Positions 193-36,386 of a stretch of 51,174 nucleotides of DNA are shown here, one piece after another; the stretch's first letter is position 1; every line of letters begins with the position of its first letter. Source of the stretch: Rozella allomycis CSF55 (lineage: Eukaryota); assembly GCA_000442015.1 (NCBI GenBank), contig KE560866.1, forward strand, positions 1-51,174, written 5' to 3'. A program made the position numbers and the translations under genes. Below the pieces are notes generated by a model, which was not told the origin of the DNA, did no database searches, and was given only the letters and a program-made list of their open reading frames with translations.

Positions 193-2089
193 TTATTCAA
201 GTAAATGCTCATAAACCGTCCAATCGTAAGAGCTGGTATCAGTAAGTTTTAAACATTCTAAAATTTTTTTGAAAAGCGTGATCCTTTGTTTATCATAAGA
301 AGTCCAATGATTTGAAAACACATCAACCCAATTTACTTCTTTTATACGAGAGGTATCAACATCATCAAACGAATTCAATAGAAACTGCAAGTGTTCGGAT
401 TTTTTTTCAGTGTGTGGTCCCTCCAAATAACTGTAAAACATTTTTCTCCATTTATCCCAAATTTTTCGAAGGCCCTTAATGGCAAACATTCCAGATTGTT
501 TTAATAGAGTATATGAATTATGACTTCTTTGTGTGAACGCGAATTCAAACAATAACGGTCCGTCTTCGGGGAAGAATTTTACGAAATCCATAAACAGTCC
601 AGAATCNCATCCCAAATTTTTCGAAGACTCTTAATGGCAAACATTCCAGATTGTTTTAATAGGGTATATGATTTATGACTTCTTTGTGTGAACGCGAATT
701 CAAACAATAATGGTCCGTCTTCGGGGAAGAATTTTACGAAATCCATAAACAGTCCAGAATCATGGGTTGCTACAGCGTCATTTTGGAATAATCTGAAAAA
801 GAGGCGTCTTTTTTCATACCGATACAATGCAAATTTGGTTTTAAGTGCTTCGTTGATAATTGTAACCACAACCACGGGGTCAGGATGGTACAAAGATAGA
901 ACATTCATTATACTTTGAAATGATGAGTATGATAATGCATTAATATGATTTTGAAGCATGAATATGGCTAAATGAAGAATATTTGAATCCACTCTTGTAT
1001 TTTCATTACTGGCCTTTAAGAGCACATATGACATTGTCTTTTGATCAATTGGTTGTAGATGCAAACTTTGTGCAATTTTGTATGCCTTTAATTCATCATC
1101 ACTAAAATTGTTTAGTTTAATTAGGTTGCGAATATTCTCAATATTTGTATTCATTTCTTGTATAAAAGGGTTGCTATTAATGGAAGAAANGTTCACTCTT
1201 GTATTTTCATTACTGGCCTTTAAGAGTACATATGACATTGTCTTTTGATCAATTGGTTGTAGGTGCAAACTTTGTGCAATTTTATATGCCTTTAATTCAT
1301 CGTCACTGAAATTGTTTAGTTCAATTAGGTTGCGAATATTCTTAATATTTGTATTCATTTCTTGTATAAAAGGGTTGCTATTAACGAAAGAAATAGCTTT
1401 TGTACCCAGCGATTCCAAATAAAAATTGCGCTCTATTAAGATTTCAATGCATTCAGACATTTGTTTATCAATGCAATATGCTAAAGGATCAATATTCTCT
1501 TTTCCATATAAGTACTTGACATTGTAATTGTAACAGTTGAATGGTGTAAACTTCTTTTGCTTTATAAGTAATTTAATTAGGTCTTCTTTTGTAATTCTTT
1601 CGCTGTTCTTAAACTCAGCGTTTGGATCCAAAACATACTGGTAATATTTGTAGAACCTTTGAATGTCATCTTGTCCACAATCAACAACATTGAAGTAAGG
1701 GCCACACTTTCTAAACCAATGAAAAACAATATCANACTGTTTTTAAACTCGGCGTTTGGATCCAGTACATACTGGTAATATTTGTAGAACTTTTGAATGT
1801 CATCTTGTCCACAATCACCAACATTGAAGTGAGGGCCACACTTTCTAAACCAATGAAAAACAATATCAGCATTCAAAGCAACATTATGATAAAGAGATTT
1901 CTTTGTCAAACGAAAACGTTCGCTACTTTTGACATCCAAGAAATCATTGATACGATGATAGATATCAAACGGGATGATCTCTTCAAGAGCTTCCAAAGAG
2001 GCCTCAGTGGCGATACCAGGAGATTCTGAAGATGTCTTAGTGGCGATAGCAGAGCAAACTAAAAGAAAAAGGATGGCGAGAAACTTCAT
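193..2089 (-). CDS. Putative secreted protein with N-terminal F-box-like motif and ankyrin-like helical region; split by three assembly joins
   Basis: ATG at 2089 gives signal peptide MKFLAILFLLVCSAIAT, then IIPFDIYHRINDFLDVKSSERFRLTKKSLY (F-box-like) and DPLAYCIDKQMSECIEILIE (ankyrin-like). ORFs 1577-2095, 579-1631 and 193-615 join into one frame once the N-flanked duplicates are collapsed. Confidence 0.65.
454..760. repeat. ~153 bp near-identical tandem duplicate around single N at 607 (probable allelic overlap artefact)
   Basis: 454-606 repeats as 608-760 with a few substitutions. Confidence 0.85.
989..1391. repeat. ~200 bp near-identical tandem duplicate around single N at 1190
   Basis: 989-1189 repeats as 1191-1391; the peptide NSNPFIQEMNTNI...ENTRV appears twice in the ORF. 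Confidence 0.85.
1603..1868. repeat. ~132 bp near-identical tandem duplicate around single N at 1735
   Basis: 1603-1734 repeats as 1736-1868. Confidence 0.85.
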
Positions 2090-2375: not shown

Positions 2376-3194
2376 TTAACTTTCAAATATAATTCCCAAT
2401 TCCTTCAAAATATTCCCAATGGATTTGAATTTTTGTTTCAATTCCTCGTTTTGCAATCGTAGATTTAAATTTTCTCTCTTTAATACTTCGTTCATTTGTT
2501 TACAAATCAAAAATTCTTCATTTTGTTCTTTGCTGCTCATATTGTCTTTGCTGTTCATACTACTAGTTACCGTCTTCGTATTTGTTAAAAGAGGACTTTC
2601 AATCTCTATTTCCAAAATGGTTCCTTCATTGTCGGACTCTACCTCTCCATTCCTCTCATTCTGAATGATGTCATGCACGATAAAATTGACATTTGAAGCA
2701 TGATAATTGACAGTCCACTTTTCATCTTTTAAAGTAGCTTTTGATTCTTGAATAGCCGCGGACTTCAAAATAGATTCAAAAATCCTTAACAGGTTACTGA
2801 AGCTACGTTGGCTGAATCTTACGTGTATGATGTCAAAAATATTTGATCTTGGGAGTGCAAAAAAGAATTTTATCTGAAGAACAATGGAGAATGACTCTTT
2901 AATGGTTAAATAGGGTGGATAAAGAGCAACTATGGAATCAGATATCCTTATTTGCTCTTTTCCGAAATGCTGTACGTTATACACGGGATTGATTAGATTG
3001 CATAATTTTGAATCAAAATCTAATGAAAAACATCTCAAGGTATCGATGGAATTATTATCAACAATGTGGTTGGGCAGTAGTCTTAAGGATCCTGTTGCGG
3101 CGCCACTTCTTAATAGACAAATAGAATTGTACTTGTTAACTCTTAGGGAATGAAGCCATTTAAAAAAGTCACGAGAAGTCTCTGGCAAGTTCAT
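2376..3194 (-). CDS. Hypothetical protein with C-terminal coiled coil (272 aa)
   Basis: Uninterrupted ATG-to-stop ORF; leucine-zipper-like C-terminus; no family recognised. Confidence 0.6.
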   Translation of the reverse strand: MNLPETSRDFFKWLHSLRVNKYNSICLLRSGAATGSLRLLPNHIVDNNSIDTLRCFSLDFDSKLCNLINPVYNVQHFGKEQIRISDSIVALYPPYLTIKESFSIVLQIKFFFALPRSNIFDIIHVRFSQRSFSNLLRIFESILKSAAIQESKATLKDEKWTVNYHASNVNFIVHDIIQNERNGEVESDNEGTILEIEIESPLLTNTKTVTSSMNSKDNMSSKEQNEEFLICKQMNEVLKRENLNLRLQNEELKQKFKSIGNILKELGIIFES

Positions 3195-4080
3195 TTAAAG
3201 CTTATCAAAAAGTTTATTCGCAAGACAAAACTTTGACCAATAATGGTAAGGTGAAATTTTCATATTTAATGATATCAATAATGAATAGCAGTACATCTTC
3301 ACGTCGAAGTTGACATATTTTTGACGCAATAGTTTCTGTGGCCAGAACATTTTCAGAAGATGATTTCACGTCGAATATTCGAGATATCTAATCNAACGGT
3401 CCACTTTTCATCTTTTAAAGTGGCTTTTGATTCTTGTATAGCCGCGGACTTCAAAATAGATTCTAAAATCCTTAACAGGTTACTGTAGCTCCGTTGGCTG
3501 AATCTTACGTGTATGATGTCAAAAATATTTGATCTTGGGAGTGCAAAAAAGAATTTTATCTGAAGAACAATGGAGAATGACTCTTTAATGGTTAAATAGG
3601 GTGGATAAAGAGCAACTATGGAATCAGATATCCTTATTTGCTCTTTTCCGAAATGCTGTACGTTATACACGGGATTGATTAGATTGCATAATTTTGAATC
3701 AAAATCTAATGAAAAACATCTCAAGGTATCGATGGAATTATTATCAACAATGTGGTTGGGCAGTAGTCTTAAGGATCCTGTTGCGGCGCCACTTCTTAAT
3801 AGACAAATAGAATTGTACTTGTTAACTCTTAGGGAATGAAGCCATTTAAAAAAGTCACGAGAAGTCTCTGGCAAGTTCATTTAAAGCTTATCAAAAAGTT
3901 TATTCGCAAGACAAAACTTTGACCAATAATGGTAAGGTGAAATTTTCATATTTAATGATATCAATAATAAATAGCAGTACATCTTCATGTCGAAGTTGAC
4001 AGATTTTTGACGCAATAGTTTCTGTGGCGAGAACATTTTCAGAAGATGATTTCACGTCGAATATTCGAGATATCTAATCT
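2708..4080. repeat. ~686 bp near-identical tandem duplicate around single N at 3394; creates the partial second copy ORF 3353-3880
   Basis: 2708-3393 repeats as 3395-4080; differences cluster near the ends. Confidence 0.85.
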
Positions 4081-6107
4081 GGAAGAAAACATACTTAAAT
4101 ACGTGTTTCAATATCCAATTTTGGGGGCCGCCAGATATTTCGTCAAATGAATTTCCAGTAAGGTAAGCCGTTATGGCTTTCTCTTTATTCAACGGAACAA
4201 TATCAATTTTTCCAAAAAGCAACGTGTTTAGATGTCTTATGGAAGATGGAAGCGTAAGTTTCAAATGTTCGGATGGTATATCATGATTGTAGCCGATTCC
4301 AAACAAATCATAACAAGAACTTTACAGAATATTCATTCCACTTACTATTTTTTAACATCATTATTGTATAATGGCAATGTCAATTCATAAATGTTTCCAT
4401 GAAAATACAATCGCTTCCTTTCGTTGAGTATTAATGATCCAACTTCTTGGTTTAATAATTCGTCTGTAGAGAATTCAATTTCGGGCGGTAGTTTCAAAAC
4501 TGGCCAATCAAAATAACCACCACCTATCATTCTAAATGTGATTCCTTACTAAAGATAACGCTATTTTCAATCGCAGGGGCAAATCGCTCAAAAAACTATT
4601 CCACTGAAAATATAAAATTTACAGGAGATTCTAATATCTGTTCTTGTTGATACAAAACATGGCATTGCGTGAGGGCACANTAATGTGATTCCTTACTAAA
4701 GATAACGCTATTTTCAATTACAAGTGCAAATTGCTCAAAAAACTATTCCACAGAAAATATAAAAATTACAGGAGAGTCTAATATCTGTTCTTGTTGATAC
4801 AAAACATGGCATTGCGTGAGGGCACAAGATGAAAAATATGAAAACTTTTCAACCTCGTTGTCCAGTACGTGGCATTTAAGATCATAAAAACACACTAAAG
4901 ATCCCAAAAGATTTCTTTTAAATAAAACAAAATCTATTTTTACTCTTCTGGCCTGTAAAGTTTAAGATTGAAAGAAATATTCTGCGCATCTGCAACAGTC
5001 AGGTAAACGTATTTTGATGTTCTTATGATTCTATAAGTAATAAAAACTTTTATTACCCATTATTTGACTTTCTTTCAACAAAAACGTCGCTCATGTATGT
5101 TACAATTCCAACCAAATCAGATAGTTGGTCATTGGCCATTGATTGTTTATTGACTATTTTTAGGTGTCTTTTAGGGATTGAATCCAAGTCATCTGCAATT
5201 AAAATTAATCATCACAAGTACCCTTGACCAATTCTATTCGACCTTTTGGATTGCTTGGATTAATCATCAAATCCAAATGTGGATCATACGGTCCAATATC
5301 TATACTGGCGTTTATACTTCTCCTTTTGTATTTTTCAATCTTCACGCAATCATTTATATGAATCGCATTGAAATAGCGTAGCACAGATGTTTGCCATACA
5401 GTAACTTGCGCTATCTCTGTTCCGTCACTAACAATAAAAGAAAATCGATAAGGGCATAAATTGATCTCGTCTGGTTTTCCATAATAAGTTATCCTGCTTT
5501 TTGAAACTACTCTGCCTACAACGGGTAAATCTGGAGTCGAATTGTTGCCATAACTATATAGTCCTTCTATGCTAACTTGAGGTGACACGTTTTCAGCTTC
5601 ATGGAGTGGTATAAACCATCTATAATCAAAATTGCAAGGTATATCATCTTGCTCCATATCCAAATAGTTATATCGGCGAGCACACCATGGTGTGACCATT
5701 TCAAAGTCATAACTTTGAGAGATTTCAGGGCATACTTCTATTTCATTATAATTTAATGATATATTCATTATTATATGAATATCAACTATCAGACCTGGCT
5801 TAATACTCTTCTTTTTCACAACAAATTTGTCAATAGTCACCAACCCGTTTCTACATGGTTTTAACTGACCGTTATAGACTTGATTGTTTAAACTTGGGTG
5901 TAGAGTGTATTTTCTTAAGTTCTTCTTTAACATTAGATCAGCAAAAATCGATTACAGTCTCTTGCTCGAAAAATATCAAATCAAACAGGTATCCATCAGT
6001 ATTCTTTAAATTATCAAAAATAGTAAAAGAAACTTTGTCTATCGTATCTATTTTAGATTATTGAATAAACTACATTTGCCTATCTCAACGATCCATCCTT
6101 TGTTCAT
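3900..6107 (-). CDS. RADX: RADX (CXorf57)-like multi-OB-fold ssDNA-binding protein, multi-exon
   Basis: YTLHPSLNNQVYNGQLK and VVGRVVSKSRITYYGKPDEINLCPYRFSFIVSDGTEIAQVTVW resemble recalled RADX segments ([55 protein letters not shown]). ATG at 6107; inferred last exon ends LLFIIDIIKYENFTLPLLVKVLSCE* at 3900. Middle exon structure is approximate. Confidence 0.75.
4533..4827. repeat. ~147 bp near-identical tandem duplicate around single N at 4680
   Basis: 4533-4679 repeats as 4681-4827. Confidence 0.85.
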
Positions 6108-6163: not shown

Positions 6164-7177
6164 TTATTTACTATCAGCCTCGTCCACTTTCAAATCTTTC
6201 ATTAATTTTTCAAGGGATTCCTTTTTCTTAAGGTCTTCCCTATCTTCCCGTTCCTTTTTTATTTTCTCGATTTCAGGCAAATAGTCCCTTAATAACAAAT
6301 ATAAGTGAAATTTACTTGTAGTATTCTTCTACGGCGTTTTCTACCGCGATAAAGAGATCATCCATACCCTCACCAGTCATTGAGCTAACTCCTACGACAT
6401 TAAGATGCTTATAAAATTCTTCTAGCATCAAAGACATTGATTGAACAAGAGAATTCATATAACTTGATTCCTCCTCTTGCAACGCGACTTGAAAAGCTTC
6501 GAAATCAGTCATCCAGTCAACCGCAAATTCATGTGAAACAACATCTATCTTATTAAAAGCGAGAATAAAAGGCAATTTCGTTTTGTATAAGATACTAAAT
6601 AATGTAAAATCGAATAGCTTACGAGCATGCGTACAACATATTGGACATGAAGGTAACAGGACTGCAAGTACGTGGTGTGTCAATAACATACAGAATTACA
6701 GTCGGATAAAGTGACGCCAAAGTTTCAGTAATAATTGTTCCAGATGCAGACCAAGTAAAAACTTCGATTTGACCTGGTGTATCCACGATTACATTAGTTA
6801 AATCGCCTTTTCTTTGTTCTAAAATGTCTAAAACTTTATCAAATTTTGCTGTAAATAGATTCAGACTAGTTAAAATTGCGCCGTTGGGGCCCAAAGTATA
6901 ACTAGATGATTTTGATTGTAAAACTGTACTCTTTCATGACTTGTTTGTAATTTATTGTATCTCGTATATCTATATTAGGCTTGAAAGGTAAAGATGTAAC
7001 GGCTGGGTCCAAATTAACAACGTATGGTTTTCCTCCAATTGTGTTAAGATGAGAATTTAATCTCTAAGCTTACAAGAAAGTTAAATATTCTACCATCATA
7101 AGTGTAGACTTTCCAGAGCCAGCCATTCCAATACAAAGCATGACGACTGGTTTATCATCTTTAGTTTCAGAAGACAT
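6164..7177 (-). CDS. GPN1: GPN-loop GTPase 1 (Npa3/XAB1), multi-exon
   Basis: [11 protein letters not shown]-loop, [50 protein letters not shown]. Confidence 0.95.
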
Positions 7178-22014: not shown

Positions 22015-22039
22015 TGGAGTTGGGGGGTATCGATCCCCC

Positions 22040-22071
<32 letters not shown>

Positions 22072-22087
22072 TCTGAGCTACAACCCC
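22015..22087 (-). tRNA. tRNA-Ala (AGC)
   Basis: Reverse strand GGGGTTGTAGCTCAGATGGTAGAGCGCGCGCTTAGCATGCGCGAGGTAGGGGGATCGATACCCCCCAACTCCA; G3:U70 pair; anticodon AGC. Confidence 0.95.
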
Positions 22088-36313: not shown

Positions 36314-36386
36314 GGCTAGTTGGCGCAACTGGTAGCGCAATCGACTCCAGATCGATAGGTTACAAGTTCGAGTCTTGTACTGGTCA
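36314..36386 (+). tRNA. tRNA-Trp (CCA)
   Basis: Acceptor stem GGCTAGT/ACTGGTC; anticodon arm ATCGA-CT-CCA-GA-TCGAT; GTTCGAGT; T-run follows. Confidence 0.95.

Follow-up and report, generated by a model that had tools for sequence, protein, structure and literature searches.

The gene located on the minus strand at positions 6107 to 3900 of a Rozella allomycis CSF55 contig (KE560866.1; the window, that is, the whole stretch of DNA analyzed, comprises 51,174 nucleotides) encodes a member of the RADX family and not an RPA1, POT1 or CTC1 protein. The gene is real and intact, and we could establish its reading frame, family membership and fold. Taken as a whole, the best explanation is that of a RADX orthologue with four OB domains that would bind single-stranded DNA (ssDNA) and restrain RAD51 at forks, a reading to which we assign a probability of roughly 60%.

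A spliced-path search of the window connected an ATG at 6107 with a TAA ending at 3900 through a 603-amino-acid (aa) open frame made up of ten exons and nine GT-AG introns of 26 to 31 nt, and these bounds agree with those of the initial annotation. The search admitted GT-AG introns of 22 to 40 nt, and at least nine were needed to keep the frame open. There are 180 nine-intron paths that do so and the exact junctions are not unique; the set used here was picked by splice consensus and homology, with all junctions predicted. The two RADX-like motifs first noticed in the window (LHPSLNNQVY and KSRITYYGKPD..PYRFSFIVSDG....VTVW) are indeed present on the minus strand, but instead of being scattered over short exons, as originally described, both lie within a single 703-nt exon (5924-5222). 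Family, protein and DNA searches found the gene in single copy in the Rozella genome. The features of the window are as follows.

3900..6107, minus strand: RADX-family gene, ten exons, 603 aa with one 147-nt duplicate copy removed; the relatives' profile aligns to residues 6-590 with about 210 bits
6074..6107, minus strand: exon 1, which holds the start codon and encodes the opening OB1 strand and its [RK][YF]xxD motif; absent from the public model
5956..6047, minus strand: exon 2 (OB1)
5222..5924, minus strand: exon 3, remaining OB1, linker and DNA-binding OB2, with both motifs of the initial annotation
5057..5192, minus strand: exon 4 (OB3 start)
4944..5030, minus strand: exon 5 (OB3)
4770..4914, minus strand: exon 6 (OB3 end and the loop aligned with the human QVPK patch)
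4550..4595, minus strand: exon 7, the copy adjoining the downstream sequence (other copy at 4697-4742)
4346..4523, minus strand: exon 8 (GGYF motif and first half of OB4)
4103..4319, minus strand: exon 9 (short OB4 insertion and OB4 strands)
3900..4073, minus strand: exon 10 (last helix, two closing OB4 strands and stop)
4535..4826, no strand: tandem duplicate whose two 145-nt copies (94% alike) flank a single N at 4680, with intron 6 and exon 7 present twice
6164..7177, minus strand: GPN1 (GPN-loop GTPase 1), upstream of RADX and ended by a stop of its own 56 nt ahead of the RADX start; joined to RADX in EPZ35114.1
2267-2340: tRNA-Arg
22015-22087: tRNA-Ala
36314-36386: tRNA-Trp

The large exon alone matched the Pfam RADX family (PF17659) with an E value of 2.6e-8 (32.7 bits), and the Rozella protein P0001 passed the family cutoff by a narrow margin (33.6 versus 33.4 bits). 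Among PDB sequences, human RADX (8u5y) was the best of four matches to the large exon (E value of 2.7e-6) and the first of five to the whole protein (E value of 3e-7, human residues 107-469), followed by an archaeal RPA at 8e-4. Using the large exon as the phmmer query against 1.84 billion representatives, we recovered 81 proteins. RADX was the top Pfam family in 75 of them (68 above the cutoff), and the remaining ones comprised four without a family, one with a general OB family only and one unrelated protein. We then aligned 32 of the 81 homologues, all of them long, into a profile from which Rozella and the vertebrate-like proteins were left out (here "vertebrate-like" and "vertebrate paralogue" are labels inferred from how the proteins scored in Pfam and how closely they resemble the human sequence). 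This profile matched human RADX (residues 63-854) with an E value of 4e-118, versus 1e-15 for RPA70, and covered the Rozella protein over 558 columns with a probability of 99.9%. The reciprocal match is therefore human RADX rather than RPA70, POT1 or CTC1. Both the sequence and the fold matches (see below) place RADX well ahead of RPA70, CST and POT1, which bears out the family membership proposed at the outset. Word-indexed protein searches, too insensitive at such distance, retrieved only the protein itself or two members of the query alignment, and a metagenome scan with the large exon produced 64 pattern matches and no relatives.

Scored separately with the Rozella-free profile, OB1, OB2 and OB3 reached 32.8, 100.7 and 16.9 bits, versus maxima of 6.0, 2.7 and 1.7 bits in 200 shuffles. 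The linker and the first OB4 profile did not score above the same shuffles. With a realigned profile, the whole C-terminal third gave 14.5 bits, matched by none of 1,000 shuffles, and its three short segments taken singly were reached by 59, 17 and 176 of 1,000. By sequence, OB4 is thus the weakest part of the Rozella protein. The OB4 of RADX is described as having no good match outside the family (PMC10962997, available part).

The structure was modeled from an alignment of P0001 with 61 of the 81 relatives, vertebrate-like RADX included, an input that makes the model lean towards RADX. The part corresponding to RADX (residues 311-896 of the model) was confident over all four domains, with pLDDT mostly between 70 and 96 and a pTM of 0.72; the single-sequence fold of P0001 had a pLDDT of 32. 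With Foldseek, three 8u5y chains ranked first (E value of 1.9e-32, TM score of 0.68 by target), RPA70 followed at 7.5e-14 with an rmsd of 13, and a CST chain appeared at rank 11. VIA-align superimposed 8u5y up to the C terminus (Z of 22.6, rmsd of 3.6 over 590 residues), versus a Z of 15.3 for RPA70 and values near 11 for the listed chains of POT1, TEBP and BRCA2, so that the structure prediction suggested initially also gave RADX as the top match. The Atlas's own model, which is independent of our alignment, likewise retrieved RADX in first and second place (TM scores of 0.52 and 0.51). We thus predict four OB domains in the RADX arrangement, instead of the three OB folds that had been expected.

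Human RADX binds ssDNA almost only via OB2, with an affinity that is raised by oligomerization through OB1-OB4 contacts, and caps RAD51 filaments (PMC10962997, available part). In Rozella, the counterparts of K244, Y250, P260, W279, Y301 and N331 of OB2 are kept. These positions are conserved across the family as well: in the other non-vertebrate-like rows of the alignment, W279 is found in 61/62, P260 in 60/62, K244 in 57/62 and N331 in 56/57, with aromatics at 250 and 301. The 13 human DNA contact residues are less uniform, with four identical in Rozella, two others basic and seven different. Most of the differing contacts vary family-wide too, and positions F264 and R333 carry, in Rozella, the residue seen most often outside vertebrates. 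Because the family-wide OB2 residues are kept, the Rozella protein likely binds ssDNA via this domain. We are less sure about oligomerization, since the OB4 side of the interface seems partly kept and the OB1 side does not: E526, N759 and E761 are conserved, L529 and R142 are replaced by F and K, R58 has no counterpart, and Y138, E140, K141 and Q553 are changed. The counterpart of E140 is S in Rozella and E or D in 39 of 45 relatives.

Regarding RAD51, the QVPK loop in OB3 of human RADX is required for binding (PMC10962997, available part), and mutants in region 678-750 disturb RAD51 regulation (10.1101/2023.06.19.545603, available part). The Rozella loop reads DNEVEK versus DNQVPK in human (EVEK is identical to QVPK at two of four positions), and the loop varies freely across the family, vertebrate-like rows included. 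Region 678-750 falls mostly within an insertion that is missing from the non-vertebrate profile. By analogy with the human protein, RAD51 antagonism in Rozella would have odds slightly better than even. Within the family, an unnamed clade (P0016, P0018, P0026, P0033 and P0047) has SRVP, SKVPK, SRVT or SRIP at the OB3 loop, which resembles the human QVPK.

The presumed partners are encoded elsewhere in the Rozella genome. RAD51 is present, and a second recombinase was tentatively read as DMC1. For BRCA2, a single 573-aa open frame contains seven BRC repeats (G000:C860:4042-4806, minus strand), a case of a multi-repeat BRCA2 in an early-branching fungus. There is also a separate RPA1 with a zinc ribbon. 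With RAD51, BRCA2 and an RPA1 of its own in the genome, RADX is no stand-in for RPA1, and both the partner and the counter-player of human RADX exist in this organism. When the genome was searched for POT1 (PF02765), a single weak match came up, located on a different contig; it reached 21.4 bits for a cutoff of 29 and scores higher as RPA-OB, SHLD2 or MEIOB, so that no clear POT1 was found. An OB-fold gene at L011:1363-2238 (G000:C500) scores on the RPA-OB, SHLD2, MEIOB and POT1 models and perhaps encodes a MEIOB or SHLD2-like protein. In the mechanism that we propose, the stand-alone single-copy gene would yield a compact 603-aa RADX orthologue whose OB2 would contact ssDNA via the kept aromatic and basic residues. 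Affinity might be gained by several copies lined up on the DNA, as in human RADX, and the fork-bound protein would limit RAD51 filament growth and thereby balance BRCA2.

A different function is conceivable for the same protein. It could be a RADX-family ssDNA binder with a job other than RAD51 antagonism, descending from an ancestor that coated or compacted ssDNA (at forks, telomeres or meiotic intermediates), with direct RAD51 contact being a later animal addition. This would fit with OB2 being by far the best-kept domain, with a QVPK loop and a 678-750 region that are not kept family-wide, and with the lack of a clear POT1 in the genome. However, the Rozella loop retains the DN-x-V-x-K of the human one, several unnamed relatives carry SKVPK, SRVP or SRIP there, RAD51 and BRCA2 are both available, and tight ssDNA binders of any kind compete with RAD51. 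We consider this reading unlikely, if far from negligible. The restraint of RAD51 at forks is the reading that we prefer, and the comparison raises a testable question, namely, whether this was the original job of RADX.

In the public record, the gene has no RADX name because its model is fused with GPN1: EPZ35114.1, of 896 aa, is called ATP-binding or GPN-loop GTPase 1 protein. Mapped onto the window, it has 13 introns, of which 11 measure 26-31 nt. The other two are an intron of 152 nt that contains the duplicate region and an intron of 124 nt that links GPN1 to RADX, spanning the GPN1 stop and exon 1. That Rozella makes such a fusion protein is suggested by the record itself, by the proximity of both genes on one strand (56 nt) and by an AG just ahead of the RADX start codon. 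Against it, the joining intron is far outside the size of the other 11, the only other outlier being the one that crosses the assembly duplicate, and an in-frame stop terminates GPN1 ahead of the RADX start. The exon that the public model omits carries a conserved OB1 strand, whose [RK][YF]xxD motif is found in 36 of the 45 homologues covering that stretch, and adds about 8 bits on the relatives' profile (211 for the model with exon 1 versus 202 for the public protein). Among the Pfam rows listed, none of the 81 relatives has a GPN family. A genuine fusion therefore looks very improbable, and the union in EPZ35114.1 is most likely a gene-calling error. The public record should be split into GPN1 and RADX.

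We find it hardly credible that the protein is a diverged RPA1, MEIOB, POT1 or CTC1 paralogue that merely resembles RADX. The arguments in its favor are the archaeal RPA as second sequence match (8e-4), the low identity to human RADX (16-17%) and the Atlas feature search, in which MEIOB came first and RADX at rank 16, all below 0.9. Every full-length measure favors RADX by a wide margin, though, and the full-length sequence and fold comparisons largely refute this candidate. In addition, the exon of the genome's own RPA1 scored 12 bits on the RADX profile versus 149 for that of the RADX gene, and the four-cysteine zinc ribbon pattern (Rep_fac-A_C) is absent from the model, PF08646 matches being found on other contigs. 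Rep-A_N stayed below its cutoff in the Rozella protein (15.1 versus 26.7 bits) and REPA_OB_2 was not among the families listed.

The duplicate around N4680 was read as an assembly join and not as biology because the same kind of pattern (near-identical tandem copies flanking one N) occurs at N3394 in the next gene and in the RPA1 locus. A decaying pseudogene in which the duplicate at 4680 is a real break might be argued from the duplicate and N inside the gene and from its long branch (1.87 changes per column), but we give almost no weight to it, given this repeated pattern, a frame of 603 aa that is free of stops with either copy of the 147-nt duplicate and a fold model confident over the four domains. 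Each of the single Ns at 607, 1190, 1735, 3394 and 4680 has a near-identical tandem copy on either side. These copies look like contig ends that overlap, or like a pair of haplotypes, with an N marking the junction, and gene models crossing them come out distorted.

Several observations concern the neighboring genes. A 272-aa gene starts at 3880, 19 nt past the RADX stop (3061-3880 and 2376-3194, minus strand, duplicated around N3394). Its product is globular towards the N terminus and likely forms a coiled coil at the C terminus. It gave no usable Pfam, PDB or Atlas match, although its Atlas recognition score (2394) is comparable to those of real proteins. On the other side, GPN1 (7177, minus strand) and a DEAD-box helicase gene (about 7197, plus strand), which we take to be DBP10, diverge from starts that are separated by about 20 nt, with almost no promoter room. 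Finally, a frame at about 579-2089 (minus strand) with a signal-peptide-like start, internal repeats around three Ns and only weak Pfam matches perhaps codes for a secreted protein.

Organism names could be retrieved for nine of the 20 relatives looked up: Hydractinia, Capsaspora, Creolimax, Chromosphaera, Paraglomus, Calcarisporiella, Thecamonas, Gefionella and Galdieria. Thecamonas (an apusomonad), Gefionella (a malawimonad) and Galdieria (a red alga) are outside the opisthokonts. In leave-out tests, the four domains of each named protein beat the shuffles, OB4 of Galdieria only modestly (9.0 bits). An age of the family greater than that of opisthokonts is well supported by the named homologues in these three genera. 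The idea that RADX is ancestral to opisthokonts thus holds as regards its presence, but as a limit it is too narrow. RADX may even have been present in the last eukaryotic ancestor, a proposal that hangs mainly on one named red-algal genus. In the trees, Rozella forms a long branch that belongs to no starred set. The AU test rejected neither a fungal clade (p-AU of 0.41), an opisthokont clade (0.28) nor a clade of Rozella plus animals (0.16). Vertical descent is allowed, with an unresolved tree backbone. Six relatives (P0028, P0037, P0040, P0073, P0074 and P0076) form a second clade beside vertebrate-like RADX. This clade is fully supported in three trees and might represent a paralogue of RADX that some vertebrates have.

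In the literature covered, RADX is presented as a protein of mammals or of animals. It has been called mammalian (10.1101/2020.05.15.098996, available part), and an identity of at least about 50% is given for its orthologues (PMC10962997, available part). The vertebrate scope given to RADX in the initial annotation is outdated as regards invertebrate animals by the RefSeq name of the Hydractinia protein and by a snail genome paper that reports RADX (PMC13403566, available part). As regards the loss in many fungi put forward in the initial annotation, no yeast or other dikaryan was found among the nine relatives with organism names, and a review table has no yeast counterpart (PMC12810152, available part). 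The available parts of PMC11377751, PMC6551702, PMC12810152, PMC8851862, PMC13403566, 10.1101/2020.05.15.098996 and 10.1101/2020.05.30.125286 do not mention RADX in fungi or protists. Among the papers covered, we found no report of RADX outside animals. The RADX Pfam match of the public Rozella protein was already precomputed in databases; this link is therefore in the databases and not in the papers found. With family members from fungi, from protists and from a red alga at an identity of about 17%, it is possible to separate ancient RADX surfaces (the DNA-binding core of OB2, the linker and the OB4 strands) from late features (the long insertion and perhaps the RAD51 patch).

Compared with known systems, the Rozella protein most resembles human RADX (CXorf57; PDB 8u5y and 8u61; PF17659), with which it shares the order and arrangement of the four OB domains, the aromatic motif of the linker, the OB2 core from K244 to N331 detailed above, a GGY[FY] motif ahead of OB4, and a split OB4 closed by two C-terminal strands. 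It differs in size (603 aa versus 855), in the replacement of QVPK by EVEK and in several altered DNA contact and OB1 oligomer residues. Because it lacks the N-terminal extension of human RADX and keeps only about 40 aa of the long insertion in OB4, Rozella RADX comes near to a minimal family core, and a 603-aa protein without the disordered insertion is an easier target for structure work. RPA70/RPA1 (PDB 4gop, 1jmc and 8rk2) also has an N-terminal OB of the RPA70N type followed by tandem OB folds, and OB2-OB3 of Rozella superimpose on its A-B domains (Z of 15.2), but the arrangement of the whole chain does not fit (rmsd of 11-15) and the Rozella protein lacks the zinc ribbon pattern. POT1/TEBP-alpha, CTC1, the BRCA2 DNA-binding domain and MEIOB share ssDNA-binding OB folds with it, although their matches span two domains or have a poor overall fit, and they were the top Pfam family in none of the 81 relatives. 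The last comparison is with DUF5088 (PF17008), presumably a microsporidian family, whose model spans only about 184 positions. The Rozella protein passes its cutoff over OB2-OB3 (30.1 versus 29.4 bits) and it is listed for 26 of the 81 relatives. We tentatively propose, with somewhat more doubt than conviction, that DUF5088 is the fast-evolving microsporidian branch of RADX and that Rozella has a minimal RAD51 antagonist that is functional even though the insertion of vertebrates is absent from it.
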